A DNA stretch of 55,284 nt, counting the filler, from Circinaria calcarea (Eukaryota): assembly GCA_051942165.1 (NCBI GenBank). It is 5 parts of 5 records of this genome, joined end to end, with 100 filler letters (N's around TTAATTAATTAA, not from the genome) between each part and the next. Parts side by side here need not be neighbours in the genome. Positions count along the whole stretch, not along the records: positions 22,182 to 33,157 come from JAVECS010000731.1; 4 more parts are not named here. One strand, given 5' to 3'. The notes beneath the pieces were generated by a model. It worked only from the letters and a program-made list of their open reading frames with translations. It was not told where the DNA came from and searched no databases. Shown here piece by piece: positions 5,819-53,855 of the stretch; position 1 is the stretch's first letter; the number at the start of each line of letters is the position of its first letter. The translations under genes were made by a program, and so were the position numbers.

Positions 5819-7156
5819 ATGGCCGAAATTGTTGAGGTAGAGGCAGGGTCACAGAGAGCCATCAAGGACCTACTTTCTGGCGCCGCAGGCGGTATCGCTC
5901 AGGTTTTGATAGGTCAGTCGTTGTGGGAATTCATAATTGATCTTTGGCGTCAGTCTTGCTGTTGTAGATATCTCGAATGCCTTTTACGTGGGTTTCATAT
6001 TTTCAAAAGAAAAAGCGATGACGCCTGAGAGCTCCACCAAGACTGGTATGGATTCATTTGTGTTCAAATATCCTGGAAACAACACACCTTTGTGGTGGGT
6101 TAGACCACTGACTTGTTATCTTCCTTCAGGACAGCCTTTCGGTAAGAGGTTCTAATCAGCCCGAAGATGATGCTATGGTCTTGACATTGCCATCATAGAC
6201 ATTGTCAAGGTTCGGCTGCAAACAACCACAAAATACTCTAATGCCTTGGATTGTGCGTCCCAAATCTTTAAGAATGAAGGAGCTACAGCATTCTACAAGG
6301 TAGGTTGACATCCTTTCGTTCCACTGGAGAACTTTGCTAAAGGCAAGGAACGTGATGATAGGGTACATTGACCCCTTTAGTAGGAATCGGAGCATGTGTA
6401 GGCCTACATCTACTCCCTGCAAAAGACCTTTTGCTCACCCTATAGGTATCAATCCAATTTGGCGCTTTCCACTGGGCTCGCCGACGCTATGAAAACTCAA
6501 ATCTCTCCTCGCATCCCTTCACTCCCGGGCTCTCATACTCCCAATACTACCTCTCAGGCGCCTTTGCCGGCGTAGCCAATTCCATCATCTCCGGGCCGAT
6601 CGAACATGTTCGCATACGTCTACAAACCCAACCCCATGGCGCTGCGCGTCTCTATAACGGCCCGATCGATTGTATTCGCAAGCTCTCCGCTCACGAAGGC
6701 GTACTTAAAGGTCTTTACAGGGGCGAAGCCGTAACCATCTTGCGAGAAGCCCAGGCATATGGTGTCTGGTTCCTGACGTTCGAGTATCTGATGAACGCTG
6801 ATGCAGCAAGAAATAAAATCAGAAGAGAAGAGATTCCGAGTTACAAGGTAGCTTTTTATGGAGGTCTGGCAGGTGAGGCTCTGTGGCTTGCGAGCTATCC
6901 CCTTGATGTGGTGAAGAGTAAAATGCAAAGTGATGGTTTCGGGCCAAATATGCAACACAAGAGTATGAGCGATTGCTTCAGGCAGACTTGGAGGACTGAG
7001 GGTGTGAGAGGGTTCTGGAAGGGTATCGGGCCTACACTGTTAAGAGCTATGCCTGTCAGTGCTGGAACCTTTGCGGTGTAAGTCTGCATTCTGTGCAATA
7101 TTTGAGGAAGCTAACGGTTCCATAGGGTGGAGGCGACAATGAGAGCTCTTGGATAG
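5819..7156 (+). CDS. YMC1: Mitochondrial carrier family protein (Ymc1/Ymc2-like)
   Basis: Multi-exon gene. Three Px[DE]xx[KR] motifs (QPFDIVKVRLQ, GPIEHVRIRLQ, YPLDVVKSKMQ) and GAAGGIAQVLIG. Confidence 0.85.
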
Positions 7157-7308
7157 CAAGAGCCCAGGATGACTTCCAGTGTGACTCCTTGCATTATTTA
7201 TATTTACATATTTGGTACAAACGTGCACAGAGAGGGGAGTCCCTAATGGCTACGATGCTTCTCCTTTCCATTCTCCCAGCGAATAATCTCTTTGTTTACA
7301 TATATTCT

Positions 7309-8490
7309 CTAATTGTGCATATCCGCCCCACTGCCGCCAAATCTAGCATCTCGAGTCCCGTCCTCGGTACCAAGTCGCACGGGCGTGTATGTGATCTCTC
7401 CTCTATGTGCCTTCTCCTTACGCCTCTGCTGTCCCTCTTCACCTGCCTTGCCCAGAACCCCGGCAATAACCTGCACGCACCGCAAACTATCATCATTTGC
7501 AGGTATAGGGTACGTTACCCAGGTAGGGTTAGCGTCCGTATCTATGATTCCAATGGTAGGGATGTTGTTTAACCCGCACTCGTGCAACAATACCCAATTC
7601 TCCAAGGGATTCATGCAGACCACAAGGTCTGGCTTTAGCACCGGCTGATCCAGCAGCGCTTCTTTGAATCCTTCAACTTCCCTATCGTATTCATCTACAA
7701 CTTTCAGTTTGCAACCGCCCAGTATCTGCTGTCCGTTCGTTATGCTTCCAGGTGTCCACCGCTCAAATAAATGGCAGCCGCCAGCCAGCTTCGCCGCGTT
7801 GACCACACATCTGTCCTGCCCTGGCCGGGTGCCGACAAACAAAATCAATCCTCCACGCTCAGCCACGCCAGAGACGACCCGGCAGGCGCGGCGCAGATGT
7901 GAAGCGGTAACGTCGAGGGAGATAATGTGGATGCCCTGTCGAATGCCAAAAATGTAGCGCGAGTTCATAGGATTCCAAAGGGAAGTCGAGTGACCCAGAT
8001 GGGACTGGGACGCTAGGAGGAGCTCGAGGGTGATTGATGATGGAGATGGGGGATTAGTGAGAAGGGTGTGCGGCTGGTAATAAGGGTCAATGTCACTGCC
8101 AAATTGACCGGTAGTATTTTCTAGAGATAGGCCGACTCAGCAACTGTGGTCCCTGTTGGTTATGATGGACTCTTACGTTGATGTTTGATAACACGATGTC
8201 TTCGAACCACCGAGTCGGACTCAAGGTCGAATGTAGCATGAGTGTTGTCATCGATGTGGGGGACGAAATCTGAACTCTCTTTCTCCAGTAACGATTCAAT
8301 GGAGTGAGTTTCTTTCAGGCTGTTGTCCAGAGATGCTTCGATAGCATCTACTTCGCTGGCGAAGGACCGGATGCATAACTTTGCTGGGGCTGATCCGAGA
8401 CGGCCACCTTGAATATTAGAGTCAGTAAAGTGGAATCGATTTACTCGTCTTTTGCCTACCTTGCCGTCGTAGTATATGCCTAAGAATCAT
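7309..8490 (-). CDS. MRP4: Mitochondrial ribosomal protein uS2m
   Basis: S2 motifs SHLGHSTSLWNP..YIFGIR, LILFVGTR, RWTPGSITN, IPTIGIIDTDANP..YPIPANDDS. ATG at 8490, intron-containing. Confidence 0.9.
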
Positions 8491-8633: not shown

Positions 8634-11002
8634 ATGTATGAAGATGCCTCTTTCCATTCCATTCTGCCAAGGGAACAGCCTAAGGGGGAGAAATCCTATG
8701 GTTCGAAACATCGGAGGAAGAATTCTTTACTAGAACAGCCACAAGTAAGCCTAGCGAAGCGGTACAGCTTGCACCTGAACAATCTCTGATACTCTACGTA
8801 GGGTGGTGCCAGAGCTAACGAGAGCTTGATAGATGATGCAGCTGTACTTGGGGTTGTGAGACTACAAATCACTGGGCCACCAAAAGCTACGTTGAGCCGG
8901 CGCGCTCAGTCTTACGCCGACTTCCACTATGCTGTTGAAGCTGTGCTGGGTTCAGCATCGAAGCCTAAAGGAAGAGGTTCACACAAGGATACCAAGGAGA
9001 TAAAAACTGATCTCGATTTCAGTGACTGGTATGGGGATTTGGAAGAGGATCTCCTCGAGGCCAGCCACAGTCAGTACAAGTATGCACAACTCTTCCTATC
9101 GCAGGATGATTCCCGTGTACACTTGCTCATCGGAAATGCATAGGGTCTACCAGGATCAATTGAAGTTCACCGAGTCATACCTTGACTCGTTGTCCTCGGG
9201 TACATCGTCGGCGCTCGACCTTCTAGCCTCGTTGTCCAAATCCTTCCGAGATGTTGAAGCGCAAACCACCGCCTTCCAAAAACAATGCGAGAGCCTGATG
9301 GTTGAGCAGCAGCGGCTCACCAACCTAGCAGATAATTTCGGTGAGAACCTACAATACTACAGCTATCTTGAGCCGATTACCAGAAAGCTCAATGCCCCCG
9401 GCGCTGGCAACTTTGTCAGGGGCAAGGAGTTCTCTGATATGCTCGCACGTTTGGATGAATGTCTAGAATACATGGGAGCTCATGTACGTTATCTCCTGTT
9501 TGAGCTTGGGTCACATATGCTAAACTATATAGCCAAACCAACGTGAAGCAGCTACTTATCGCTCGCGGTACCGCTTACTGCTGACAAGGGGGCTCACCTT
9601 AATTCGTGTTCATTTTGGAGCTGCCTTGCGGGAAATAGCCCAAGACGTTACCAAAAGGATTGCCGATCGGCAATTGAATGATACGACCATGTCTACCCTA
9701 TTATACGCCAAGTTTCGTGCCGGTGCTTCGGAGCTTAAGCAGCTAGCCCAAGAAATCCGAAAACGAGCGGTAGTTCCACCTGGAGCTGAACCAGGCGCTG
9801 AAGCAGAGTATCAGAGTCTGATGAACGAGCTTTACACCAGTTACTCTGCAACACGGGGAAAGCTTGTGATTCCTTTAGTCCGTAAGAAGATCGCCGACAT
9901 TGCCATGGCTCCAAGTACCTCCAAGGACCTTATTGCCTTTGCGCGGAGTAGTGTTGGCTACGTCCGAGGAATCTGCTCTGATGAGTATGAGCTGTGGCGC
10001 CAGTGGTTCGATGGAGAAGAAGGCATGTACGACTTCTTAGAGTCGGTCTGTGAGCCCTTGTACGATCATTTGAGACCACAGATCGTTCATGAGAACCAAC
10101 TTGTTAAGCTTTGCGAGCTATGCACGTTATTGCAGACCAGGTATATGCAGGATCAGGATGAAGAAACGGAGGTGGTGAATGCGAATCAGTTAGACTATTC
10201 CCTCCTAATTCACTCGGCCCTGGAGGATGCTCAAACCAGACTGGTTTTCCGGACCCAGGCAGTGTTGCGAGATGACATTGAGAATTACCGACCTAAGCCA
10301 GAAGATTTGAATTATCCTGCTCGCAATAAACGCATCTCGCTTTCCGCCAGCAACTTGAATGGGCCCATTACTTCCGGGAGGAAGGGGTCTATTATGGAGT
10401 TGAAAAGACCAGTGCCAAAGGATCCAGTTGTAGTCGATATAGCTGATTCTCCAAACGGTCAATACAGCTTCGATCTGGATGCAGCATACCAAGGATGGTA
10501 TCCGACTCTGCGGAAGGCACTTTGGCTGCTCAGCCGCATCTATAGACTCGTCAACGTAAGTCGGCTCAACGAATCAGGTAAAGTCGTCCCGCTGACATAG
10601 TTTGCAGTCTACCGTCTTTGACGACTTGGCACACCAGATTGTCCACCAGACCACTCTTTCTCTCCACCGTGCTGCATCACTGATAGCTTCCAAAGCCACT
10701 CTTAGCGACAGCCAGCTTTTCCTTCTAAAGCACCTCCTCATTCTGAAACAACAAATAGTGGCCTTTGATATCGAATACGTTACACCCGACGTCTCCTTTG
10801 ATTTCTCCGGCGTCACAAATACGTTCTACGAACTCCGCGAACGAGGCGGTTTATTCGATCCACGCAATCTATGGCGATTCATGGGTGGTGGCCTTTTACC
10901 GAGAGTGGTAGAAAACATGCTCGATGCAAAGGTAGAGCTAGATGGGAGACTGCGAACCGTGATCAACGACTTCACCACCAACTTTGCAAGCCGCATCACC
11001 GC
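8634..11002 (+). CDS. COG3: Conserved oligomeric Golgi complex subunit 3 (Sec34), 3' truncated by contig end
   Basis: Sec34-type motifs YLEPITRKLNAPG, WYPTLRKALWLLSRIYRLVNSTVFDDLAHQIV, LFLLKHLLILKQQI. Confidence 0.9.
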
Positions 11003-11605: not shown

Positions 11606-12710
11606 TTATTGCCCCTTTTCTAAAACCCTAGCCGCAACCTCATCCACAATCTCGTGCGGCAACCCAAGTGTCTCGTTCATCAGCAGTCCCTGCTTTGCAA
11701 AATCCGCTCCATAAGCCTCCTTGAGACTACTGGCCAGCGCCAGTTTGCCCATCCCCCTCATGCTGCCCGCCTTCCATTCTTCCGTGCCGCTCCTTATCTG
11801 CTCGTCCGTGTCCACGTGGGTGACAGTCCACTCGTCCACGCCTGTAGCCTTCTTCAACGCGGCCAGGACGTCGTTTATGGAGCACTCAAAAGATGAGATA
11901 CAGACGCTTCGGTTCGCCGTCTCGACTGGGTGGGCCAGGACTCTGGCCACGGCAATGCCAATGGTCGCGCGCGTCGTCGCGGAAAAAGTGGCGTCGCCCG
12001 AGTCCCAAATCTCTGCGGTGTGTGAGGCAATGTTGAAGCCGAAGAAGCCACTCGTGATGCAGCTATTGCAAGTAGCTAGTTAGTTGACGAATCGAGATGT
12101 AAAGGTTTTGAGCCTTCTCTGAGAGTTCTCTTCGTTCTACGTAGCCAAGGAAGGGGAAGGAGAACAACAGCGGGCAGGGTGGTAATGGAATATGTACAAA
12201 TCGAAGAACAGGCCGCAGCAGATGGCAGTCCACGACCATCCGGGCTTCTCCACCGCTTTGAGCTCCTCGACTATCTGTGCTTTCCGGGCAGCGATGGGGA
12301 ACACCTTCTGAACCTCAGTGGTTTTGTCGTTGCCCCCGTAGCTGGATGCCACGAGGCGCTTCACCCCTGCCTTGACGGAGGCATGCGCTAGGGCGGAGTG
12401 GCGGTGATCGGCCAGAAAGCCCAGGGATAGGACGACGGCGTCTTGCCCCTTGAAGGCCTCGACCATCTCCTCGTCCGGATATCCATCGCCGACTTTAACA
12501 ACTTTGCTACCGTCTGGAAATGTGGCTGGGGAGTTGTGTCGGGTGATGATGGTCACGTCGAAAGCAGGATTATCTTGAATAGCTTTGAGAATGAACGGAC
12601 CTAGTCTCCCAGACGCCTAATACATATTTGTCAGAACGGTCTGGGTGCGATGGAAGAGATAACATGAGACGAACCCCGACAATGGCTACCTTGGATAGAA
12701 CTGAAGCCAT
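11606..12710 (-). CDS. NmrA/isoflavone-reductase-like NAD(P)-binding protein
   Basis: Three exons. KVAIVG|ASGRLG Rossmann motif, AFKGQDAVV, AGVKRLV, WTAICCGLFFD. Confidence 0.85.
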
Positions 12711-20424: not shown

Positions 20425-21881
20425 ATGGCGTCTGCAAACACAAGTAGAATCGTCCAGCTTGCAGCGGCTATTCAGTCCCATACAATCAAGGTGGATGCCT
20501 ACCTTACCACGCACGGCCTTCCATCATTATCATTCGATGCCGAAATTCCCTCTCTACCCCCAGACACCGAAGCTTCCCGGATCTCTATTCTCGAAGCCAC
20601 AGACGAGATGGCGGATCTGATGCTCGGGCCTCGTCAGCTTGCCGAGTGTAATCCGCCTCAGGTTAATATGAAATCTCTATGCTGTATACTGTGATTGCTG
20701 ACGCAATTCCAACAGCACACTTCGCTCCTGGGCATCCAAGCTATCAGTCGATATGGCATTGCAAGCCAGGTCGGAACAGACGAAGAAGTAACGTTTACGG
20801 AGCTGGCTGAACGATGTAAACTTCCCGCCGACGATCTCCGGCGTCTTCTGCGGCAAGCAATGTCGAGGCATATCTTCAAGGAGCCACGCAAAGGCTACGT
20901 TGCTCATACCGCCGCATCGAGAATTCTTGCCACGTCTCGAGGTATCAACGACTGGGTCTATATGGCTTTGGATGAGATGTGGCCATCGGCTGCACACATG
21001 CTGGACGCTATGGATAAATGGAAAGGCTCAGAAGAAGCCTACGAGACAGTCGGTGATCAGCTTCCTGATAAGATGGATAAGCGGAAACTCGCTTCTAATA
21101 AACCTTTTCTTCAGGGATTCAACCTTGCCAAGGACACCAAAGACTCGTTTTTCGATAGTATGAAGGATCATCCACGCCGGAGAGACGCGTTCTCCAACGT
21201 CATGAGCTACGTACATTCCCGGCAAGGCATTGGATACTCTCTGTCGCATCTTCTTTCAAGCTATAACTGGGCTTCAGTCGGCACTATCGTCGATATTGGA
21301 GGGGGAACCGGTTCTACGAGTGCGGACCTTGCTCGAAATTACCCATCGATCCGTTGTATTGTCCAAGACCTGCCCGATATTGTTGCTCAGGGCCGCGAGC
21401 AAGTCGGAAGCGATGTGGCCGGGCAGATTACCTTTATGGCGCACGATTTCTTCCTGGAACAGCCAGTCAAGGATGTAGATGTGTATTTTCTTCGCTGGAT
21501 CCTGCACGATTGGTCGGACAAGAAGGCTATATCTATTCTAAAGAATCTGATCCCGGCTCTAAAGCATGGGGCCAATATTATCCTCCAGGAGTTCGTGATT
21601 CCTGAACCTGGTGTTCTCTCCTTCTATTATGAAAAGGTTTTGAGGTAAAACTCGGTTACGTCCGGTGCCCTGCCTAATATTACCTGCTAATAATATTTAA
21701 CAGATATTTTGATCTCGCTATGAAAATAAGCTTTAATTCAAAGGAACGAGAGATAGAGGACTGGATACAGCTACTTATAAATGCTGATTATCGTTTTAAA
21801 TTCGTCGGTGCAAAACTACCCCCTGGGTCTAATATGGCAATTATCCACGCTCGCTGGGAGGAAAATACCCTATCTATATAG
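20425..21881 (+). CDS. O-methyltransferase family 2 (fungal secondary metabolism)
   Basis: N-terminal dimerisation/wHTH region, IVDIGGGTG, IVQDLP, FMAHDFF, LRWILHDWSD, last exon NSKERE..W. Confidence 0.9.
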
Positions 21882-22181: not shown

Positions 22182-22489
22182 GGGGGGGGGGGTGCGTGGG
22201 GGAAGCACTGGGAGGCGAGAAAACTGTGTTCTCGTCTCATGTATATAGGAAGTTGAAGCTATTCATAGGTTCTTATATGGTCAGATTTGCGTAGACTATA
22301 AGTGAAGTACCGTATCATAGCAATTTGTATGTACTGTGGCTCTATATAAAGCAATCTAAATCAGGTAAGGTGGGTGTGTGTCCGGAGCCAGATGGGTAAA
22401 TCGGCCCTATTTGAGGCCTACGGCGCCTTTCTCATCTTCATACTTCGTACAACTATATCATCTCATCACCGCCAGCTGTACTGCCAGAA

Positions 22490-23487
22490 ATGCAGCCGTT
22501 TGATAGTGAGACCTCGGAAACTTTTCTCAAGCATGCTCCTTTCCATGACTGGGACGATAAAAGGCCTAATCGACGCATGCGACACGCCCTCTGGCTATCT
22601 TGTTCCCTTAACGTCCTTCTCGCGCTCTCCTGGGTTGGCTTCATTTTTACACAGCGGCTACCGTCGTCATCTAGATCTTCTGCTTGTATACGGCCGCTCG
22701 AAGGTAAGAGTATATCCATGTTTTCTTGCCGGATTCCAACTCATGGAGCCTCGCAGATATCTATGATGATTTTGTGTCTACTATCCGCCATACCTCTATC
22801 CGTTATGATACCGACCCATCAGTGAATGATCTCGATTTCAAAATCTATTGGGGTCGACATTGGTTTGAGAACTCGCCTCAAGCGATCGACGAGTTATGGC
22901 AAGACCTCGCAAGCAGTAAGAAAGAAGCAAGCTCGTCCAGGTTGCCAGTTTACGAGCCCCGCCAGTACAAGTCCTGAGCATCACTGCCGAAGAGGCCGCA
23001 AAACTTCCTATCCCAACTGCTGGCGACCCAGATTCGCCGGGCAAGTTCGCGGTCTCGCCCCAAGTTTTTCACGATGTGCATTGCTTAGTATGTGCTTCCT
23101 TCTGTCTATTCCTCACTTTCCATTGCAAGCTTGACCGTTGCCTTTCAAGCATTATATCCGGAATCATGCTATGGGTTATGCGCCAATACATAACGAGACT
23201 GCGAGTAAGCATCTTGTTCACGTAGGTAAGGTGACTTCTTCATCTACTTCCATATATTAAGTTGCTGATGCTAGTACCATAAAGAGCACTGCCTAGGTAC
23301 TCTTCGCCAGAGTATCATCTGCGAGGGAAGTCTCCAGCCTGTGGTCTATACCTTAATTAACGGCACCGCTTACGCTAATCCTGGTGCTACACCTCGGACA
23401 TGTCGTGACTGGAGTATGATATGGGATTGGGGCAAGCATAGAGACATCACGAATGGAAGTGTTGGTAGAGATGGCAAGAAACACTAG
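22490..23487 (+). CDS. DUF3328/UstYa-like oxidase (copy 1)
   Basis: Five exons. N-terminal TM (SLNVLLALSWVGFIF), IDELWQDL, motif 1 VFHDVHCL, motif 2 HVEHCLGTLRQSIIC, C-terminal RTCRDW. Confidence 0.92.
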
Positions 23488-23646
23488 TTAATGATAGTCC
23501 TATACTTCTTAACGCGATAGCAGCCTATTACTCTTCCTAATCGCAAATAGTTCCTGAATCAGTCGAGATAACAACTTCCATCCAACGTGAAGGAGACCAT
23601 AGAAGAAGGCGTCTAAGCCACACAAAAAGCCATTCGCCTCGACGAC

Positions 23647-23978
23647 CTAAGCTTCTTCATACCTAGGATATGCGTTGGCTTGAGCGGTCAGTGATAACTT
23701 GCCTCTGAAGACTCACCCAAATGGAGGAAAGGGTTGGCTGTTCACGGAAAGTTAAAATTACTCAAGTTCTAAAGGTAGGAACTTACCCTACAAAGGGACG
23801 AGGTCAGTATATGCATGGACCGAGTCGGGAAGAGACACATAGAATTATCAGACCCACCTTTGACGAACACGTTAACAGACTCAAGGTCAGCTTCGCTGAT
23901 AACCGGTGCTGCTGGTGCGGCTAAGACGGCGGCAGTAGTGAAGACCGCAAGGCTGAAAGAGATCTTAAAAAACTTCAT
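23647..23978 (-). CDS. Putative RiPP precursor peptide (52 aa, secreted)
   Basis: Exons 23978-23858, 23787 (1 nt), 23737-23717, 23662-23647 give MKFFKISFSLAVFTTAAVLAAPAAPVISEADLESVNVFVKGQPFPPFGYEEA*. Clear signal peptide. Lies between two DUF3328 genes. Confidence 0.75.
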
Positions 23979-24415
23979 GATGGATCCCTGGTAGAGTTCG
24001 ATGGCGAGAACAGAATCAACAGGTAGGTTAGGGTACTTGATGTGAGAAGGTTAATAGAGGTTTGCGACTAGGAAGGAAACATTTTCTAGGAAATTACAGA
24101 ACAACAACATGATTAAATAAAGCAGGTGGGAGTAGAGCTATTCGAGATCATACCTGAAAAGTGCTACCCCCACTCGACAACGAATACGTGCATCAATAAA
24201 AGGATAATTGCGTTTCATAAGTGTCGGCAAATCTGCAAGCACATGCATGTGGTGTGCCACATGTGTGCCAAGTCTACAAACTAGGTAGGTTCTCAAGGGT
24301 TGTCATCTAGTGAAAAGCAACGCACAGCCTCTTCGAGAAAGTTATCGCCTCGTCACTCTTCGATCTAGCTACTGAACTTGCTGAATTTTAGTTTTTTGGA
24401 TCTTTAACGCCTCTC

Positions 24416-25299
24416 ATGATGGCGAGTAAAGCCTACACATACGAGCCTCTCGACCAGGTTTCCAGGTCAAGCATCGACATCTCCATGATTCAATCACGCA
24501 AGTCTTGGAAATATTTTCGCCTAGATATAAACAGCAGAGCGCTAATTGCTTTTATTGCCATTCTCCTCATAAACAACAGCATCTGGGTCTGGGTACTTGC
24601 GGCGCACGGCGTAACCCAAAGTTCTACTTCGTGGAGTTACTGTAAGTATCCAAATCAAAAATATGACCTGATTTAGGAGAACCCTAATCATAGGCTCTTG
24701 TTGCAAAAGACAACTCCACCACCCAAATATCCAAGTCCTTCCACTGGAATACGCCGTTCAGCAGCGACAATAAAACCGTCTCAAATCATTTATGGGCCGA
24801 ACTGTTTCCTCGTAAACATCTATTCCATCGGATACAACGCGTATATATATTCTAAGACTTCGCAGGTGGAGCTGGACTTGTGACCGTGGACGAGAAATGG
24901 GCCAAGGCCCAAAACCTCCCTATAAGCAAACAAGACCCTACGGATGCTAACCGCATGGTCTACTTCGTGGCTGCTCTGCACCAAGTCCACTGCCTGGTAC
25001 GCGATCGCCATTTTATTGTGAGGTTTCCGATCATGTCGCTAACATTTACCTGGCTGAGCTAGACGGTCATACGCGCCTCTCTTTTCCATTTCAATGAGGG
25101 AAGAGATCAGACCGTCCCTTGGAAGCATGTCACTCACTGTCTGGACAGCTTGCGGCAAGTCGTACTGTGTAAAATGGATGATACCCTTTTGTACACCGAA
25201 GATGCAAATGTGTTTGGTGACGGGCAGGTCCATATTTGCGGCGAGTGGAATGCGTTGTCGCAGTGGGCGGCGGATCATGCGTATGTGCAAGAGCAATGA
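24416..25299 (+). CDS. DUF3328/UstYa-like oxidase (copy 2)
   Basis: Four exons. TM ALIAFIAILLINNSIWVWVL, FHWNTPF..NHLWAEL, motif 1 LHQVHCL, motif 2 HVTHCLDSLRQVVLC, GDGQVHICGEW. Confidence 0.92.
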
Positions 25300-25435
25300 G
25301 GCCGGCTCCATGAAGCCATTAGGAATAAATCACTGGTACCATTGCACGATAGCCCCTCCTAGGCAGCAAGGTTTTGGTTCACTACAAAATTTCCATATAT
25401 TTCTGTACCTTACTGCTTACGCGCTAATTCGAGAC

Positions 25436-26297
25436 CTACACCTTGCCCTTTATCCATATATTCATCCCGATCTTTGACCCTTCGCTCACTGGCAAGCCCG
25501 CATGCAGCACTCGTTCGTCCCCCGTCCCGTTGGCTCCGAGATTGATCCAGAATACCCCACTACCCAAATTGGGCATAACGGCGAGGCCAGTGCGATTTGC
25601 AGTCGTTGAGAAGCGATCCCCGTGCACGTTCTCTGGCGGAGCAGGTAGTCTAGGAAAATAGGTCGCCCCTGCGGTGCAATTTGCGTCGAGGTAGAGGAAA
25701 AAGCTTGCAATGCGGTTGTAATCCTCTCCGCTGGTGCTCATGAGGGGTGTCTCGAACCAGTCGTAGTGCATTGCAAAAAGCGCGGACGGTCCGTACTGGA
25801 CTAGCTGGAGTGCTTCGACGCCTAGGAAGGGGATGAAACCTATCAACATGAGCGCGCGTTGCTTGACGAGTGAGACAATAGCGTCGCCGGTTGGCAAGAT
25901 GCACGAGGAGGATGTGCGGTAGGATGGTGGCGGAGTTTCCTCGTCGTAAGGACTAGTGTAGACTTTGGATGGTTGGAAAAGGGGCTCTCTATATTAGGGT
26001 CAGCTTAAAAGCTCTGCAGTTTGCGGCGCGTAGCAAGGCTGTTTTTAACCCTAGCTTGACGAGGTACTCCGTCTCTCGTGGATGGAGGAATCCATCGAGG
26101 TAGATCATCAGTGGATCGATCGATAGAACCTGTGCGGTGTATCTATGGCTCGTAGAAATTGATATTAGGTCCTGCGGCACATTCGACTTCGATGAAAGCC
26201 ACGTTGTAGCAAGCAAAGAGCCTTGAAGCCATGATATGACGAGGCTGAGAGCAATTGCCATGACAGACATGTGCAACACATACTGCGTGCCCGACAT
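25436..26297 (-). CDS. Prolyl 4-hydroxylase-like Fe(II)/2OG dioxygenase
   Basis: Two exons. N-terminal signal/anchor, LSIDPLMIYLDGFL, RTSSS, EALQLVQY, HYD...LHAGLPVSEGSK (HxD..H..K, the P4H arrangement). Confidence 0.88.
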
Positions 26298-26494
26298 TGT
26301 TCAATAGCGCTGAGAGGCCAGGATAGGGATTCATTCAGGGAGAGCTGGGGAGACAATGGCTCCCACAAGCATCGATTTCAGAACTTGGGCAGTGGTATGC
26401 ACGTCATGTAATTTTAAGGTATGGCAACGGGAGGCAAAGGCCTAGTTCTGTCTTCGTACTCTAGGTGGAGAGCTAATGTGCAGAGCTCACTTTC

Positions 26495-27415
26495 TTAAGC
26501 CACAAGGCCGTGAAACGGCGCATAGCGTCGCACTTTGCCTTCTGTGACACCATACTCGATCTCCGCCTCGTCAAGTATCCTGGCGTCGAAGAACGCTTTG
26601 GCCTCCGTCCAGTCGCCTTGCAGCAGCGCAGCCTGGACCTTATCCCGCGATTACAGCATAAACTCCAGCATGTTCGGAAACCGGTCATCGTCGAGCCAAT
26701 AATTCGAAAACGTGCCGTAAAGCTTGAATTTTGCCGCCCAGGCTTCGAATGATGGATAAGGATAGTGTAGGAGGACGGGGTATTGTCCTTCTGCCTCTTT
26801 CCTGGAACCCTCTTCCTGCTGAGATGCAGGCAAGGTTATAGCGACGCCCTCGTAGCCCACGAACCTGTGTGGTCCGTTAGGCACCACATTCCGGCTTAGC
26901 CTCACGGCCGATTTGCCGTTCCCATACGCCATGAACGCCTTGTCGCTATTCACGCTGAACCAGACACAGTCCATAAACGCATTGCTCGTAGGATGCGAGA
27001 TAGGAATAGCCTCGTGATTCGTGAACGTGACGTGGCCGACGCCCGGGCAAGTCCGCCAGCTTGTGTGACCGTTCTCAAACAGGACCTCATCCTGGTCGAT
27101 ATGCAGCAGCCACCAGCCGTCCGGCTTGTCTGCATGCTGCGCTGGCTGCGTCTGGTCGAGCAGGAAGGATATTGCGTGCTTGAGATTGCTGTTCTGGCGC
27201 AGGCGTAATCGATTGGAGCGAGCCATACGTGGGGCGTCCATTGCGCCGTCGAACAATCTTACGGCTCGGCCCACACACAGACTCTCGAAGATGGGCCGCC
27301 TGGTGGGATCGTCGATGTAGATAATCAGTAATTTACAGCGCTGAAGGTGATAGTCCAGCCAGATAACGAAACTGAGCGCGGGCTCTAGGATCGTGGTGAC
27401 GATTGCGAGGGCCAT
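26495..27415 (-). pseudogene. GT-A fold glycosyltransferase-like protein (KOBITO1/ELD1-like) with premature TAA near C-terminus
   Basis: Intronless. WLDYH..IIYIDDP, RQNSN, WLLHIDQDE (DxD), AYGNGKSAVR, PNGPHRF, VLLHY. TAA at 26651-26653, after which the frame continues (SRDKVQAALL...GLVA*) to 26495. Confidence 0.75.
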
Positions 27416-27596
27416 GGCTAGAGGTAGAAATGGAGAGTTTGTAACCGAGAGAGAGAGACAGACTTTGGGCTCTCGCAGCCTTGAAGACTAACGGATGCTT
27501 TTCCATTCTACGGCTACTTTTGCAGCTCAAAGCAGTCCGAGTTGTCGTGAGAGGGCCAAGGCGCTATATTTTCGTGTCACTACATGCAGTCATCCT

Positions 27597-30500
27597 TTAT
27601 GACTCTTTGGCTCTGCCGCTCGCCTCCCATGCCGCCTTCGCCAGCGCCAGCAGATCATCCTTGTCCATAGCAGCCTCACACATGCTCTTGAACATGCCAC
27701 CCTCCCTCTGGAGAAGCTTCCAAGGATGGTCGAATTCCATAACCTTGCCACGGTCCAACACGATGATCCTATCGTGTTCCACCACTGTTCGAAGTCGGTG
27801 AGCGACTGTAATGACCGTGGACCCCATTTTCCTGATACATCCCTGGATCTTGAGGTCCGTTGTATGGTCGATTGAGGCGGTAGCTTCATCCAGGATCAAT
27901 ATGCTTGACGCTTTGAGGATAGCACGCGCGATGCAAATAAGTTGCCGTTGTCCCTGGGAAATGTTGGAGCCTGACTCGGCAAGAACAAAGGACAGGTCGG
28001 CGAACTTATTGGTTATGGCGGTCGAATCCTGCGGCTTGCTGTGCTTCGACCCAGATCGTGAAGGTGCTCGGGCCAGTCCGCCGCTGTAAGATTCAAGTAA
28101 TCCGACGTTATCGAGAGCGCGGAGTACCTCCTCATCGGTGTGCTCGTCGCATGGGTCCAAGTTGAAACGTAAAGTACCCGCAAATAGTATTGGGTCTTGA
28201 GGTACAGTGGCTAATCTTTGGCGCAGAGCACGCAGGCCAATGTTTTTCGTGTCTACGCCGTCGATGCGGATCTGTCCGTTTTCAACTTCAAGCCCGCGCA
28301 GAAGGGTGAGGACAATGCTGGATTTGCCCGCACCAGTGCGACCGACAATACCGATCTTTTCAAGCGGTTTGATAGCGAAACTAAGTTCGCGGAGAATCTG
28401 ATCTAGGCCTGGAGCATAGCGAGTCGAGACGTTGTCGTATTCGATTACTCCCGTTCTAGGCCAGCCCTCGGATAGATTTGTGTTGTTCATAACTGCTGGT
28501 GCTTGCTGTGGAATATCAATGTACTTTTGAACACGTTGTAGTCTGTAGATATATGTCAGCATTCGAACACCCAAGCGTTGACCGCGACAGGACTTACGCA
28601 GTCACATTCTGCAAGTTTGAGGAATGATACCGCACGAGCCAGAGTACGTGTTCGGAGAACACAATGGCATAGGACATGCTCAGCCCGATTGCCCCCGCAC
28701 TGAGCTTGCCTAAACTCGAGATGGCAAATGAACTTGCGAATAGGGATACAAAGGCACCTATAAGACCAAGTCGAATCGAAAGCCATCTCTCCGTAGCTGC
28801 CGCAAAGAAAGAAGGCCTGTTGGCTCTATCAATTTGAGTAAAGTTACCCGCCGAGTACTGACCCATGGCGCCAAACGCGCGAATGGTGGTGACGCCTGAG
28901 AGCGTCTCACCAAGATGCTGGAAAAGAGGCGCGCGTTGGCTCGATTCAAACTCTTTGAGGTCGCGCGATGCAACAATGTAAACGGCGCCAATGAGGTAGT
29001 AGGCAATACTGATCGGAACTCCCGGGACAAGAAAACTGGGCGTAGTCATCGCTATGAGTATGACAATACCTGCGAGCGCTCCTAGAAAGTGCAAGGTTGC
29101 GATGATGAGCACAGCGAGGTGCTGGTCGACAATCTGCAAGTCTGTGGAGAACCTGCCAATGATCTGGCCGAAAGAGGTATCGTTGAAGAAGATGAAGCTG
29201 GCGTTCATGATAGACTTTATAAGCCGTCGGTGTATCACAGCTGAAGCCTGGAGAGAGCCAAAGGATACCAGGAACAGTCTCAGTAGGCCTACTACCATGT
29301 AAAGGCCAATAATGAGGCCATACATGCCAAAGTAGTAGGTAAGATTAATCCTCTTGGGGCTGAGCTGACAATCGTAGCTACTCTCAGACCGCATGCCATC
29401 CGAGTATTCCTTGGTAGCTTGCTGTCCTGCTTGCGTGTATGCATCGGATAAGTTCCGAACCCACCAGTTGGTGGCAATGGCTCCGAATTGCTGACCTATA
29501 AAGGAGAACACAAGCAGTGGCCAGAAGCTCCAGCCACCCATGCTAGCGAAATACCTAAAGATATCGCGCCACGAGAGCTTTTCATTTCGCTGAAGTTCCT
29601 CGGTAACAGATACGTCTCCATCTGGTCGATCCGCGTCCTCCTGCTGGATAACATCGTGTTTTTTCTTAATCTTTTCCGGTCTTGTTTTAGCTCCTAGAGG
29701 AGTGTCGGAAAATTGGTGGTTTCTTTGACTGCCCTGATCATCGTTATTCGTAGTGAACGAATTGTTGAGTGGGAAATGGAGGCCGAGTTTTGCAAGGTCA
29801 CTCGGGGCCCCCGCTGCAGCCACTTTTCCGTTCTCGAGAGCGACTAAAAAACGGGCATCAGCTGCAGCAAGAGCCAAGTTGTGGGTGACCAGTATACAGG
29901 TTCGGCCCTTGAGAAGAGATCCTTTGATACAATGTTGAAAAATCCATGCGGCAGTATGAGCGTCCACGGCACTGAGGCAGTCATCGAGAAGTAGATGACA
30001 GGCGTTTGAATAAGTAGCTCGCGCCAGCGCAATCCGTTGTTTCTGTCCGCCGGATAGGGAAATACCACGCTCGCCTACCTGTGTGCGCTCGCCTTGAGCA
30101 AGATCTTTGAGGTCAATGGCGAGCGCGCAAGCATCCAGAACCGCTCTATAACGCTCCTCGTTGTAAGGACTGCCGAACAGGATGTTATTACGGATTGTGT
30201 CATTGGTCAGCCAAGCTTCTTGTGCGCAATATGCTACGGCGTCGATTAGGCCAGAGTCTAGATCAACTGGTAAATCCTCACGGTTCACAGCTGCGGGCAT
30301 GCGCACGGCTCCTTTGATAAGTGTCATTTCGCCCAGCAGGGCCAGTAGCATTGAGGACTTGCCGCTGCCAGTCGGCCCGGTAATAATATTGAGCTGTCCG
30401 GATGCAAATTTGATGTTAAGATCTCTTAGAGTAAATTCGTTGCTGACATCGGAATGATCTTTTGAGGTACCGTTGATAACGTAATCCTCTGCGGAAGAGT

Positions 30501-31952
30501 CCCAGCCGAATGTGGCATGCTCGAAGCCAATTTCCGATGAAAAGTAGAGCCGCTGTTGAGGGAGTTGCTTATACTTGCCCGTCTCAGGTTCCTTCAAGAA
30601 AATTTCGACCCGCCTGACAGAGACGAGAGCGTCCTGAATACGAGCAAGCATTCCGACAAACTCGTCTAGGGGTGTTTTGAGAAGGTTGAAATATGAAAGT
30701 GAGGAAAATGCCAACGAGGGAGTCAGAGGCTTCCCCTCTATGATAGCGTAGACAAAGAACGATGTGAAGGTAATAAGCAAGGGCATACTATACCAGATGG
30801 TTGCAGCAATGGACCAAAGAATATATCGAGCGCGTAGAGCTCGAAGTTCTTCTGTTCTTTTCTCATCGATTCTCTGCTCAAAGCAAGACTCCCAAGCAAA
30901 GAATTTGATGACACGAATACTGCGGACCATTTCGGTCGTGCTCTGGATCCTTCGGTCCGATGCGGCCATGACTTGCAGCTGAATCGCGCCAAACTGTCGA
31001 GTAATTTGAGAGTTCAGCGGCACCACGGCGGTCATTAAAGCAACGCCAGCAAGGGCACTGAAACCTAGCGTGGAATACAGCAAAGAAATAGCTATAAGGA
31101 TTTGCACCGGAACTGATCCCCAGACTTGATGCATGCTGGCTCCTGCATCGGCAATTTTGAAAGCGTCCGTGGTAAGGAGGTTCATGATGGTTGCGACATC
31201 AGCCTGCGGGGCCGTTTCGGTTCCTGGCGGTGACTTTTCCGTTCTCTCAGACAGGGAGGAGGCAATTCGCCGTCTCAATGCTTTAGCGTATATTTCGCTG
31301 ATTATGATTGACCTCAAGCGGAAACCGATCTTCTGCCCGATCCACAAGGCACGACCTTCTGCAACGGCCGCTAAGATGCTGGTAAAGAACAGAAGAGCCA
31401 CATAGAGCCACGCTTGCTCCACAGTGATCTTACTCTTGTCTTCCACGTACTGCAAGATAGTCTGAAGGAGCAAAGTTGGAACAAATATGAGCACTCCGTA
31501 CAGAATCGCCCAGATTGATTGGATTGCGAACAACTTTTGAAAGTGTCTAAGCAGGCGGGATAGAAGACTAGGACCTTGACTATACATGGATCAGCTAAGC
31601 TCTAAATCTCAAAAGTGAAGAAAGGGATTATAGCTAACCTGGCTTCCTGAAAGGCATAGGCATTGGCGCTCGCGATATCTGCTGAGCCTAGGGAAGGCAT
31701 ATCTTGGAGCTTCAGTCCTCGGTTGTGCCAACCTTTTAACAGAAGACTATCCATCCAAGCAAAACTCAACTCGCCTAGTGTTGTTGCACAGAGCTCCCGC
31801 TCTGGCCTGCGCCATGTCAGAGCAGTAATGAGCACGAGCGCCATTGTTATGATCAATGCAAGATGAGACTCTTGTAAGGCGAGTTGCACCTTGGTGACGG
31901 TAGTGCTCCACTCCATCATCAATTGGCGGCTTTCCGGTATTGAGGGGAGCAT
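27597..31952 (-). CDS. ABCC/MRP-type ABC transporter (Ybt1-like)
   Basis: TMD-NBD-TMD-NBD. Walker A GPTGSGKS and GRTGAGKS, signatures LSGGQKQR and ISQGQRQ, lasso motif LSFAWMDSLLLKG. Two introns. Confidence 0.93.
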
Positions 31953-33157
31953 TCAATAGTAGGTGATCACGATGAAAGTAAGCATGCATATGCCTGTATC
32001 CTAAGGACCGTACTGCGAGGGAAGGAGATCGGAGGCGGATTCTCCTATATTTGGCAAGACGTGTGGGGGGAAAAAAAGGCATGGAGATGTGGTTAGAAAA
32101 TGGACGTACAAACATAGGTGGGTAGTTACCTCGAGGGGGGCACACCAAGCAGCTAGCGTTTGCATAGATAAATACGGTGGCATGAATCGAGGTTAGTGCA
32201 ACGTACTACGGTGGCATGAATCGACGTTCCGGCAACAATGATTTTTCGAGATTTTTTTTCGGAAAACCAAAATCGCTTTTCGACTTCGCGCACGCCAGTT
32301 TCTATCGTTCCTATTATAGTGTTGAACTTTACGAGGTTGGTAGATACTCGATAAAGCGTGATAGAATGGGGCACTGTGGAGCGTCTCTTATTACGTAGTC
32401 ACAATGCGGTATGTGAGGCAGTTCATGTATCGTATTCTGTCAAACCTTTGCGGTTAGATCCTCGGGCGGACGTTATTCCGCCCGTGCCCACACATAGATA
32501 GATTCTTCTGCTGCGTTACACACGCAGCATAGCAGACCATACACACGCACTTGTAGCAGCAGTTATTCTCTCGCTCCTTTATCAATGCCATAGTGACTCA
32601 GTAGCTTGACATATTCCTGTATGGGCGGAATTTATATGAAAGTGTGAAAAGTCTATGGAATTATGAGGCAGAAAACAACGCTTTTATGTGTGTTACGTGA
32701 AGGCGCTAATACTTCGCATATTACACTCCCGAGTCTACACTCGCGAGATCACGTGCATAGTGCTAAGTTCGACATATAGTAATTACTATGGCAGCAGCGA
32801 CAGCGCATATAATTAAATAGCTAGCTTGAGATAATACTGTTACGAAAGCAAATCTCTGTGTCAGGGCGCTGCAATCCTTGGGCTCAATGAGGAATATGTT
32901 AAGTCCCGATTGGTGATAGCACGGTTACATAGGGTGTAGTCGATCTGTTGCCCTAGGCTCAATAGTATGGAGTCTATTGAACACGGTCTATAAGCATGCT
33001 ATTCTAATGAGCGCAGAACAGCCTGCCTATATACTGAGGTTGCTTCCCTTGCTCCCGTTGCTCCCGTTCTGCCCGTCGTGAGCAACCGCACTGCTCCCTA
33101 TGCTCCCTATGGTTACACAGAGCACCAGTGTAAGCAACCCGGAGTATTGTTCCTCCC

Positions 33158-51140: not shown

Positions 51141-53266
51141 TTATTTCGATATCCTTTGTTCTACTGACTCAATGCACTGCTGAATGATCCCAAGGACACC
51201 AAGAAGCCCTGACCTGATCATGTGCCGCATATTTCCCAACAGATCTCCCAGTCCGACCCCTGTTTGTCGCAGTCGGTACGCTCCAACTATTGTCAACACC
51301 AACACTGCGTAACCAAGAGCCTTTCTAACTCTCTGCTTGATCATGCCTTTCCTAGTGTAGGCGACATTCCAATCACTCCACTTTGGGAACATGCATCTCA
51401 AGGAGTAATCGATTTGAGAACGTCTGCAAGCATGTTAGATGATAGAGAATCGAAATTGTAAGAAAAGAACCTTGCTCACGGATAGGCAGTCGCGTTCCAT
51501 CCAACATCGTTCTTGTACCAACTATGACAACCTCCAGTCGTCCATACGGTATACTTGAGCTCTTCCTGCATAGCGTTTGTCCATGCAACTTCCGCGTCCT
51601 TTTTAACCTCGAAGGTCCTAACATCACCCTTGAGAAGAGGCTTCAGGAAATGTAAAGTATAGTTCACCATGTTCTCACTCGCGAGGATCACCGATGAATG
51701 GCCGGTAGCTGTGTTCGGACCGAAGAGGATGAAGAAGTTTGGGAACCCGTCCATGGCAGCGCCCATATACGCTTGAGGCCCTCCCCGTTCATCCCAGACA
51801 TCTTGCAACAGCTTGCCTCCTTTACCAACGACCCTGAGGGGGTGGAGCCAAGTGCTGAGGTCGAAGCCGTTTGCGAGAATAATGGTATCTGCGGGGAGTT
51901 TAATCTCATCCGTTGGCGCTTTAGAGTCTATCTTATTAGAAGCGGGATAGGTACGGCCCGGACCGAGCGTGATTCCTCGAGGTTGGACGCTGGTGAGAGG
52001 CTGTGTGGTTAAGAGGAAGTTGGGGTCGTTCATTGATGCGAACCAGTCGCTGCCGAAAATGCGTCGTTTGCAGCCGAGGCCATAGTCAGGTGTTAGTATT
52101 TCGTGGTACTTTTCCGGAGCGATAGCTTTCATGTGCTGTAGAAGCCTAGCCTCTGCTTTCTTTCGCCCTTTGACGCTGAACTTGTTATTGAAGAAGAGAG
52201 TTTGGAATTCAATCTCAGTGAGAATAAAAACCAAGGTACGTAGAAGGCGGGCGAGCCCAGGGACTCTGCTGAAGAGCTTGGATCTGCGTTCGCTGAACTT
52301 CTCCCCTCCATAAGATGGTGCAAATCGAGGACTGACCCACGGAGGTGATCGCATAAGCTGGGTAACTGATTTCGCATTGTAAGGTGCCTTTGTCAAGAGC
52401 GGCACAATTTGAGCCGCGCTACATCCAGTACCCACCACAACAACGTCTTTCCCGTTAAGATCGACATCCTTCTTCCAGCGTGCAGTGTGAAAGACATCTC
52501 CTTCAAACTCCTTGATTCCTGGAATGGTATCAGGCCAGCTCTTCGGCTCGACCAGACCGCCCACAGCACTAACGATTACCTTTGCCCTTACTTTCTCCCG
52601 TCTCAGATACACACTCTGCTCGCTGTGAGCCGAGATGTATTGCCGACGCTCTTTCTCGCTGAGATCTCCTGTTCCTGGAGTCAGATGAGTCAAGGTGACT
52701 TCCCAAAGCTCCTCTTCCTCTAGCCATCGTACTTCCGACACGTCGGTGTTTAATTGTATTTTGTCGAGAATCTGATATTTCTGACAAACACCTTGGAGAT
52801 ATTTGATAATCTCCGATCCTGGCGCATAGAAGCTGGTCCATTTGTGATTTGGGGCAAATGAAAAGGAGTAGAGTATTGCCGGTCTAGATACGGTACTATC
52901 TTCAGTGGGAGGTCGCGTTTATAGCACAGGATACTTACATATCTGAGAGCCATTAGCCTGACTTACTCCATTATGTGCCAATCAACCTTACCGCATGCGA
53001 CTCCTGGGTATCTATTTATCCACCAAGTCCCTGATTATTTGCTTTTAGAATCTTGAACGCATTGCGGCCCCGACTAGATAATACCGACCTCCTAGACCCG
53101 CCTGGCGATCGAAGAGTCTGAATTGATCGAAGCCCAGCTCGTCCTTTAGTCGACATCCCATTGCGATACCGGTTTCGCCAGCACCAATAATCAGGACGGG
53201 GTAATAGATATATGACCCTTCATCGTAGCCGTTCTCCATGTGAATGCATTCCGAGGATTTTGCCAT
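51141..53266 (-). CDS. Baeyer-Villiger/flavin-containing monooxygenase
   Basis: VLIIGAG, GTWWINRYPGVACDIP, BVMO fingerprint FEGDVFHTARW, VVGTGCSA, GFPNFFILFGPN. Includes a 4-nt exon. Confidence 0.92.
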
Positions 53267-53855
53267 TACTCTTTGATGATCCACTTGAAAATAGAATAAT
53301 GAATACTAAAGGTAGAGAAGAGGGGGTATTGCAAAGGTCGAGGGAGCTTTGGACAGAAGCTCAACGCTGAGAAGACAACAGTAGTTGGTATGCGAAGATA
53401 GAAAGGTGAGAAACCGAAAGGAGACCACTGCCAAACCTCAAGTGATAGAACGCTTTGACGGACGGGAGAGGAGCAAAGTATTGGCTCGCGTCATTGCCTC
53501 GAGAGTAGTAAAAAGATCGTCAACAAGGTATGGTATAGGACAAGCGGGGTTGGTGAAAGCTTGCCGAAGAACCGAGGCAACTGGCATCACACATATCTGT
53601 TGGAGCACAGAGCTACTGTAGGTAGCAGATCATTCATCACGGACTTCTCGTCCAGAACCGTATGAAGGTCCGTCATTGCTTATGGATCCCTACGCAGATC
53701 TTGGGGAGGTGGAAGGCAGATCTGAGCAGATGAGTATTCTCTTCTAAGCACTACCATACCAGAATGGAAGATCCGGCTAAGTTGGCAATTGGCAGGGGTT
53801 TCGCTTCCGATGAATTGATTGCAACGGCAACGTCAGGCCAAATACAAAGCAAGGC

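Follow-up and report, generated by a model that had tools for sequence, protein, structure and literature searches.

A compact UstYa oxidase, prolyl 4-hydroxylase and glycosyltransferase gene cluster in Circinaria calcarea, with a candidate small peptide precursor

We analysed a 55,284-base stretch of DNA from Circinaria calcarea (the window), made up of five contigs of ~11 kb each that are joined by paired 44-N runs. An earlier note on this DNA had proposed that it holds a fungal gene cluster for a peptide made on the ribosome and modified after translation (RiPP) resembling the dikaritins. The candidate cluster lies on the third contig of the window, positions 22182-33157, which is one whole contig of 10,976 bp, the length that the protein database gives for the contig encoding the GT protein of the window. 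Six genes were found there and their families assigned: two UstYa/DUF3328 oxidases (Y1 and Y2), a small peptide candidate, a prolyl 4-hydroxylase (P4H), a glycosyltransferase (GT) of the GT-A type and an ABCC transporter. All the genes that had been proposed were recovered at the positions given for them, and the start of Y1, which had been placed ~300 bp from the contig edge, was measured at 308 bp from the contig end; 1.2 kb separate the ABCC gene from the other end. The features are as follows.

22490..23487, plus strand: Y1, UstYa/DUF3328 oxidase, 257 aa (five-exon model, PF11807, motifs, anchor)
23647..23978, minus strand: candidate small secreted-peptide gene, 52 aa, a model only (signal peptide, intron-like elements)
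24416..25299, plus strand: Y2, UstYa/DUF3328 oxidase, 231 aa (four-exon model, PF11807, motifs, anchor)
25436..26297, minus strand: P4H-like 2-oxoglutarate (2OG)-Fe(II) oxygenase, membrane-anchored, 266 aa (PF13640, solved relatives)
26495..26650, minus strand: C-terminal stretch of 51 conserved GT codons, in frame behind a TAA (homology, predicted fold)
26651..27415, minus strand: GT-A glycosyltransferase (GT92/GT2_4-like), 254 aa to the in-frame TAA (homologues, motifs, fold)
27597..31952, minus strand: ABCC (MRP-type) full transporter, 1413 aa, without a TMD0 (three-exon model, Pfam, solved relatives)

The reading frame of Y1 is open across five exons (22490-22703, 22757-22915, 22966-23087, 23150-23225 and 23285-23487), separated by GT..AG introns of 53, 50, 62 and 59 nt. 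Its product has an N-terminal hydrophobic anchor at about residues 33-54 and the motifs HDVHC at residue 160 and HVEHC at residue 189, the second of which spans the exon 4/5 junction. Y2 was modelled in four exons (24416-24641, 24710-24811, 24866-24996 and 25063-25299), the least certain part of the model being the exon 1/2 junction, which was picked by frame; the anchor of this protein lies at about residues 41-64 and its motifs are HQVHC at residue 148 and HVTHC at residue 175. Single exons, not spliced proteins, were scanned against Pfam PF11807 (gathering score, 25 bits). Exon 5 of Y1 scored 42.0 bits (E 1.2e-10), exon 3 of Y1 matched weakly, and the last exon of Y2 scored 45.3 bits (E 1.3e-11), which bears out the earlier identification of two DUF3328 genes, for which a PF11807 match was the first check that the note named. 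The spliced Y2 protein aligns over its full length to a profile of 13 homologues (E 5e-93) and shares 49-52% identity with its relatives in Cladorrhinum, Lasiosphaeria, Chaetomium and Dichotomopilus. Y1 is a distant paralogue of Y2, with which it shares 24% identity. Passages of PMC12435403 describe DUF3328 proteins as membrane-associated homodimeric enzymes in which the HxxHC pair forms a binuclear copper centre, and which require O2 and electrons and act on peptides.

The P4H gene consists of two exons (26297-26050 and 25988-25436) with a single 61-nt intron, and encodes an N-terminal anchor. Its product matched PF13640 with 33.7 bits (cut-off, 27), and all eight of its best solved relatives (8/8 rows) were prolyl 4-hydroxylases, led by 2jig (E 9e-15); they include the algal cell-wall enzymes 2jig, 3gze and 2jij (E ~1e-14) and the human C-P4H alpha-2 catalytic domain 7zsc (2.6e-12). 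In the alignment, the HYD motif pairs with the HYD of 2jig, the distal His is aligned, and a Lys precedes the final strand. The nearest solved relatives act on peptidyl proline, and by homology the protein is a putative peptidyl prolyl 4-hydroxylase, in line with the prolyl hydroxylase first proposed. A search of NCBIfam returned no family for the P4H or the GT.

The ABCC gene was modelled in three exons (31952-31639, 31579-28598 and 28542-27597), free of stops, with introns of 59 and 55 nt. Pfam ABC_membrane and ABC_tran matches fall on both halves of the gene. Its nearest solved relative is MRP1 (8vt4, E 2.9e-134), followed by ABCC3, ABCC2, SUR, ABCC4 and Ycf1, again as had been proposed. 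The best NCBIfam model was TIGR00957, with a score under the full-length cut-off because only one exon was scanned.

In the case of the GT, the window protein (P0017) had no Pfam match of its own, and none of its 81 homologues carries a precomputed Pfam domain. The family shares an invariant DD at positions 35-36 and a DxDE motif (D107-x-D109-E110). When family members were scanned, 33/34 matched PF13704 (best E 3.5e-10; the window protein only at E 0.075) and 12/34 matched PF01697, the GT92 model. A Foldseek search with the predicted structure of the window protein gave poplar GalS1 (8d3t) as the best match (E 4.5e-5, template-modelling score 0.52), and probabilities of 1.00 to GalS1, SunS, SpsA and GlcAT-P. 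The model of a full-length homologue, P0018, aligned in VIA-align with the GT92 enzyme GalS1 (Z 14.0, 221 residues) ahead of SunS (Z 11.9). A profile search against the sequences of solved structures returned one insignificant row (E 0.57). Motif, fold and family matches thus agree with a GT-A protein as the earlier note had described it.

That note had overlooked that the GT frame closes at a TAA, 26651-26653, where 33/33 aligned homologues continue. In this column the homologues have R (11), Q (11), E (4), K (3), L (2), H (1) and Y (1), and in 31/33 of them SRD follows directly. The 51 codons behind the TAA remain open, in frame, and 62% identical to P0018 (E 1e-16). In the model of P0018, the segment beyond the stop forms three helices and a strand with a block pLDDT (predicted local distance difference test score) of 90-98, against a whole-model mean of 85.2; the truncated window protein was modelled with a mean pLDDT of 73.0, and of 55-60 in three of five models. 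The TAA reflects a very recent nonsense change, an assembly error or read-through, and unless one of the last two holds, the GT is probably impaired in this genome.

The minus-strand genes for the ABCC transporter, the GT and the P4H are only ~180-200 bp apart (gaps at 27416-27596 and 26298-26494), a spacing that is unusually tight for tandem genes in fungi. No 8-mer was common to three or more of the five intergenic regions of the cluster. In a Pfam scan of the contig we found no tyrosinase or peptidase, as had been noted before, and no match to the dikaritin partners tyrosinase and methyltransferase, a result that on so short a contig does not imply their absence from the genome. The contig likewise holds no non-ribosomal peptide synthetase (NRPS), and tandem-repeat and six-frame open reading frame (ORF) scans revealed no repeat-type precursor on it: there were three short tandem arrays only, non-coding or incidental, and no six-frame ORF had a repeated 4-mer.

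Turning to the conservation of these genes, a scan of metagenomes for the Y2 family yielded 22 loci. In 3/22 (L002, L003 and L004), the gene directly upstream of the Y2 homologue (48-58% identity), and on its strand, encodes a homologue of the P4H (43-47%); L002 and L003 are near-copies, so that the three loci represent two lineages. The C-termini of the Y2 homologues in L002-L004 resemble Pleosporales proteins. In the window, Y2 and the P4H gene are convergent, and the gene order in L002-L004 differs from this, which argues for selection on the Y2-P4H linkage itself. A scan of the 22 loci for core-like motifs gave one match, in L018, which proved to be intron read-through inside a DUF3328 gene.

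In four Sordariales genomes, the homologues of Y2 and of the GT lie on contigs of equal size and have accessions that differ by exactly two:

Cladorrhinum sp. PSN332: KAK3997788 (Y2) and KAK3997786 (GT)
Lasiosphaeria ovina: KAK3358574 (Y2) and KAK3358572 (GT)
Chaetomium sp. MPI-SDFR-AT-0129: KAH6618350 (Y2) and KAH6618348 (GT)
Dichotomopilus funicola: KAK4147277 (Y2) and KAK4147279 (GT), locus tags C8A04DRAFT_24519 to 24521

Within an annotated assembly, accession numbers usually follow the order of the genes, and the gap of two would then leave a single gene between Y2 and GT, as in the Y2-P4H-GT order of the window.

The GT family also extends to bacteria, where we identified homologues in 79 loci, 22 of which (22/79) have a P4H-like match in their flanks. 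In Nocardia this holds for 14/16 GT loci, in six of which the P4H-like gene is directly upstream on the same strand; an example is the adjacent pair of L028, with genes at 5932-6774 and 6968-7909. Upstream of the pair, L028 also encodes a WXG100-like protein and has a repeat ORF rich in proline (745-2760). A quick maximum-likelihood tree of the GT family (33 rows) places the Nocardia proteins as sister to the fungal ones (SH-aLRT 97) and groups the window protein, with full support, in a set of eight that also contains the Sordariales proteins, one protein from Nemania, one from a lichen metagenome and one from ENA; one long-branch row, L053, which fell inside the fungal group, is to be disregarded. 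Transfer of the gene between actinobacteria and fungi is a possibility suggested by this tree.

More distant relatives of Y2 were found beside precursors of the repeat type. In L005, a 110-aa signal-peptide ORF on the minus strand (1847-1515), ~700 bp from the oxidase, contains seven copies of DPAVLQ[SG]R. In L009, the precursor (~8780-9195, plus strand) adjoins the oxidase directly upstream and consists of a signal-peptide exon followed by four IKADY cores with RR spacers; its near-copy L010 has such a precursor as well, again with four IKADY copies (277-480, plus strand). These ORFs match the description of Kex2-type precursors in passages of PMC7329392 and PMC12048977. The flanks of these distant relatives, in two independent lineages (L005, and L009 with L010), mark the Y2 family as a RiPP family. 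Both L005 and L009/L010 appear to be undescribed dikaritin-like clusters in their own right.

In the window itself, the candidate precursor is a small ORF that starts at 23978 on the minus strand, between Y1 and Y2, 437 bp from Y2 and divergent from it, with a good start context that has an A at position -3. Its first residues form a classic signal peptide, in which a basic n-region precedes 15 hydrophobic residues and a small-x-small site. In the gene model, exon 1 (23978-23858) encodes the signal peptide and ~20 further aa and is followed by three introns (23857-23788, 23786-23738 and 23716-23663). A single G at 23787 forms a one-nucleotide exon between the first two introns; with both of these removed, the 21-nt exon at 23737-23717 reads QPFPPFG, and the last exon (23662-23647) includes the stop. 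All three intron-like elements combine a strong donor with a YTRAY branch site and a YAG acceptor. This strict pattern occurs in only 12 elements per strand across the window, nowhere else in which, on either strand, do three stand in tandem, and 200 block shuffles produced one triple cluster in total. As the cluster is far beyond chance, it provides good evidence, drawn from splice signals, for a real, spliced transcript from the small gene.

One-base exons are rare. They have been documented in Arabidopsis (PMC4674806, in the part available). The two abutting introns were also considered as a stwintron. In a [D1,2] stwintron, known from Hypoxylaceae according to passages of PMC9024468, the internal intron lies between G1 and T2 of the outer donor; here, the GGTAAGT that follows the first acceptor does not fit this arrangement, and the elements are simply consecutive.

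Taken together, these data identify a real and uncharacterised gene cluster, conserved in part in other fungi, that probably tailors a peptide and for which a RiPP reading is plausible. The pathway that we favour, with a confidence just short of even, is that the compact cluster modifies, within the secretory pathway, a small peptide that contains proline, and that this substrate is the product of the small gene between the oxidases. The small gene would then give a prepropeptide of ~52 aa that enters the endoplasmic reticulum through its signal peptide, where the membrane-anchored P4H would hydroxylate at least one proline of the C-terminal QPFPPFG(Y). The two binuclear-copper UstYa oxidases would oxidise C-H bonds, most likely with an aryl-ether or similar cross-link from Tyr or Phe as the outcome, and proteases would trim the leader and a short tail. 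In those relatives whose GT-A gene is intact, its product would attach a sugar, probably to hydroxyproline, a step that has probably been lost in this genome. Finally, the ABCC pump would carry the peptide from the cytosol through the plasma membrane or into the vacuole.

Several observations weigh against this pathway, some of them concerning the small gene. A word-indexed search for homologues of the small ORF gave no candidate, and an exhaustive phmmer search with its exon 1 against 1.84 billion representatives returned one match, P0098 (455 aa, E 1.5e-4), which aligns in five stretches and was taken as low-complexity noise; the best scores in an atlas search were 0.76, which is not meaningful. 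With a query of 40 residues, a failed search of this kind is weak evidence either way. The frame of the peptide depends on the one-nucleotide exon, and alternative splice choices yield different C-termini. The unspliced ORF would encode 69 aa and removal of the first intron alone would leave ~41 aa, splicing from the first donor to the second acceptor changes the frame of the 21-nt exon, and an upstream CAAG acceptor for the third intron would leave an intron of 38 nt, which we judged too short. In favour of the pathway, only the splice reading of the earlier note, among those worked out, puts three prolines in the C-terminal stretch. Against it, there is no repeat in the small gene and no dibasic site before its proposed core, so that the peptide model fails a defining feature of dikaritin precursors.

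The remaining points on this side concern the surroundings and the GT. In L003 and L004, which have the P4H-Y2 pair, no comparable small signal-peptide ORF was found within 2-3 kb. In the four Sordariales genomes, the middle gene is only presumed, by accession spacing, to be a P4H, and some bacterial co-occurrences are incidental: in L042, the P4H-like gene is 4.4 kb from the GT with thiamine genes between them, and we rejected it as a pair. Both ends of the window contig are near (308 bp before Y1 and 1.2 kb past the ABCC gene), and an NRPS or a repeat precursor may lie beyond them. The in-frame TAA removes 51 conserved residues from the GT. The GT also has no signal peptide, and no anchor beyond its first strand, which would place it in a different compartment from the lumenal enzymes; Sordariales-type homologues likewise start at the first strand, and those from Anthostomella and Penicillium do have a signal peptide.

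Of the bolder claims in the earlier note, the single-core precursor thus retains its signal-peptide ORF between the oxidases but is left with no homologue in the searches made, no repeats or dibasic sites, and in need of a one-nucleotide exon. The RiPP reading gains from the repeat precursors beside distant relatives of Y2, features that the candidate in the window does not share. Conserved linkage, which the note had named as a check, extends to Y2-P4H in two lineages and to the Y2-GT spacing in four genomes but not, in L003 and L004, to a comparable small ORF within the 2-3 kb inspected. Glycosylation of the product, which the note had thought possible, is doubtful here, given a GT that is truncated and has neither signal peptide nor anchor.

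An alternative that we consider somewhat unlikely, but that deserves serious weight, is that the enzymes are real and tailor a peptide whose genes lie elsewhere, either past the ends of the contig or unlinked; the substrate would come from a repeat precursor or, as with cyclochlorotine and the astins, from an NRPS, and the small ORF would be an unrelated small secreted protein or non-coding. The contig has only 10,976 bp, with Y1 308 bp from its end, and DUF3328 enzymes are at work in NRPS and polyketide pathways too, as passages of PMC12048977 and PMC12435403 indicate. This alternative would also accommodate the orphan status of the small ORF in three homology searches, the P4H-Y2 loci L003 and L004 with no small signal-peptide ORF, and the repeat-type precursors of the relatives, none of which is found on this contig. 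It leaves unexplained, however, why the small ORF occupies exactly the place that precursors take next to relatives of Y2 (that of L009 adjoins its oxidase directly upstream), why it combines a classic signal peptide with an intron cluster well beyond chance, and why, under the splice model of the earlier note, its proline-rich C-terminus fits the neighbouring P4H.

It is quite unlikely, in our view, that the cluster is a decaying remnant in this strain whose product has been lost, with the GT nonsense codon as its first visible lesion. The TAA does interrupt a position where 33/33 homologues continue and cuts off a conserved, confidently folded segment, and the predicted fold of the truncated GT is worse than that of the full-length homologue (mean pLDDT 73.0 vs 85.2). 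The other five genes, however, are open and splice-consistent, and no further stop has arisen in the 51 codons after the TAA, which keep 62% identity to the homologue, so that the change is very recent, an assembly error or tolerated; nor need the loss of one tailoring step stop a pathway.

We regard it as improbable that the P4H and GT are a general hydroxyproline-glycosylation pair for secreted or wall proteins, with the UstYa genes and the pump as mere neighbours, since, although P4H-GT pairs occur with no UstYa gene in Nocardia and other bacteria and GT homologues are found in many fungi (Penicillium, Xylariales, Mycosphaerellales) with no Y2 homologue among the matches listed, the P4H adjoins Y2 relatives in two further lineages in another gene order, the Y2-GT spacing is kept in four genomes, and a GT with no signal peptide is poorly placed for secretory proteins.

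The favoured pathway, in which the small gene supplies the substrate, can be set beside several known systems. With the dikaritins (ustiloxin, phomopsin, asperipin-2a and victorin), as they are described in passages of PMC12048977 and PMC7329392, the cluster shares anchored twin-HxxHC UstYa oxidases with a transporter and a signal-peptide ORF nearby, the ORF being here a candidate precursor. The older definition of a dikaritin cluster given in the available part of PMC12048977 comprises five genes, a tyrosinase and a methyltransferase among them. As in the dikaritins, aromatic residues in the proposed core are available for oxidative cross-linking. The candidate in the window differs in having a single core and in lacking both tandem repeats and a dibasic Kex2 site, and the cluster in having no tyrosinase, methyltransferase or peptidase while adding a peptidyl P4H and a GT-A transferase. 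In this comparison, the contents of dikaritin clusters beyond the definition and the examples named are taken from general background. In our literature search, from which subscription journals were mostly absent, we found no paper that links DUF3328 with a prolyl 4-hydroxylase, nor any that, by title or abstract, connects it to a clustered glycosyltransferase.

Cyclochlorotine (CctR/CctP/CctO) and the astins provide a second comparison, since there too copper-dependent DUF3328 enzymes oxidise C-H bonds in small non-ribosomal cyclic peptides that contain proline (PMC12435403, in the passages available). The window contig, in contrast, carries no NRPS, and the nearest Y2 relatives with readable flanks adjoin ribosomal repeat precursors.

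A parallel to the overall layout of the proposed peptide is found in the hydroxyproline-glycosylated plant peptides of the CLE, PSY and CLV3 type, which likewise have a signal peptide, a propeptide and a short proline-containing C-terminal peptide. In the plant pathway, P4H and then HPAT act on small secreted peptides, and the algal cell-wall enzyme 2jig is a member of the family that includes the P4H of the window. Plants also have BURP-domain copper cyclases, in which, according to the accessible part of PMC12186524, a copper enzyme makes side-chain cross-links. The system in the window differs from that of plants in that its GT is GT92/GT2_4-like and not an HPAT, its oxidases are UstYa and not BURP proteins, its genes are clustered, and it is known from genes alone. 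The Nocardia pairs have the same two families adjacent, with the GTs 38-41% identical to the window protein, but their loci have no UstYa or ABCC genes. A last likeness is that of the GT family to the glycocin enzymes SunS and ThuS, which glycosylate ribosomal peptides: these rank 5, 8 and 25 in Foldseek, and SunS is the second-best structural match (Z 11.9, 198 residues, root-mean-square deviation 4.3). Since sequence identity is only 9-14% and the best match is the plant enzyme GalS1 (Z 14.0), no shared specificity can be inferred.

To our knowledge, the characterised DUF3328-dependent (dikaritin-type) RiPPs all derive from repeat-type, Kex2-processed precursors, and genome-mining rules follow that pattern. 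If a single-core mini-gene is the substrate here, such repeat-based rules miss a class of pathways. What is new in the window is a UstYa cluster with peptidyl P4H and GT partners, unreported in the literature searched, together with a non-canonical candidate precursor; were the proposed pathway correct, it would add hydroxyproline, and possibly its glycosylation, to the chemistry of fungal RiPPs. The pairing of P4H with GT, reaching as far as Nocardia, gives an independent handle on the function of an unnamed GT family. Should the small gene not be the substrate, a conserved orphan module would remain that deserves a product, although orphan DUF3328 clusters are common and many are uncharacterised, so that such a module would come as no surprise to specialists.

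A broader proposal, which we put forward as speculative and on balance doubtful, is that the cluster belongs to a fungal class of single-core ribosomal peptides in which maturation of the plant style (signal peptide and propeptide, hydroxylation of proline, and glycosylation of the resulting hydroxyproline) is combined with copper cross-linking of the ustiloxin style. A conserved module of UstYa, P4H and GT92-like genes, the P4H-GT half of which actinobacteria also have, would encode the pathway, and the precursor would have escaped annotation because it is tiny, with three introns and a one-nucleotide exon.

The contig of the cluster opens with a run of twelve G (22182-22193), which looks like a sequencing or assembly end artefact. 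Elsewhere in the window, two other contigs contain possible secondary-metabolism genes: on the contig at 11103-22081, an O-methyltransferase (20695-21645) and near it an NmrA-like ORF (12140-12616), and on the contig at 44325-55284, a flavin monooxygenase (51479-52918) accompanied by a cupin-8 protein (53814-54785). All other Pfam matches on these contigs and the rest are to housekeeping proteins, namely RCC1, a mitochondrial carrier, ribosomal S2, COG3, RNA polymerase I A49, a class II tRNA synthetase and CK2 beta.

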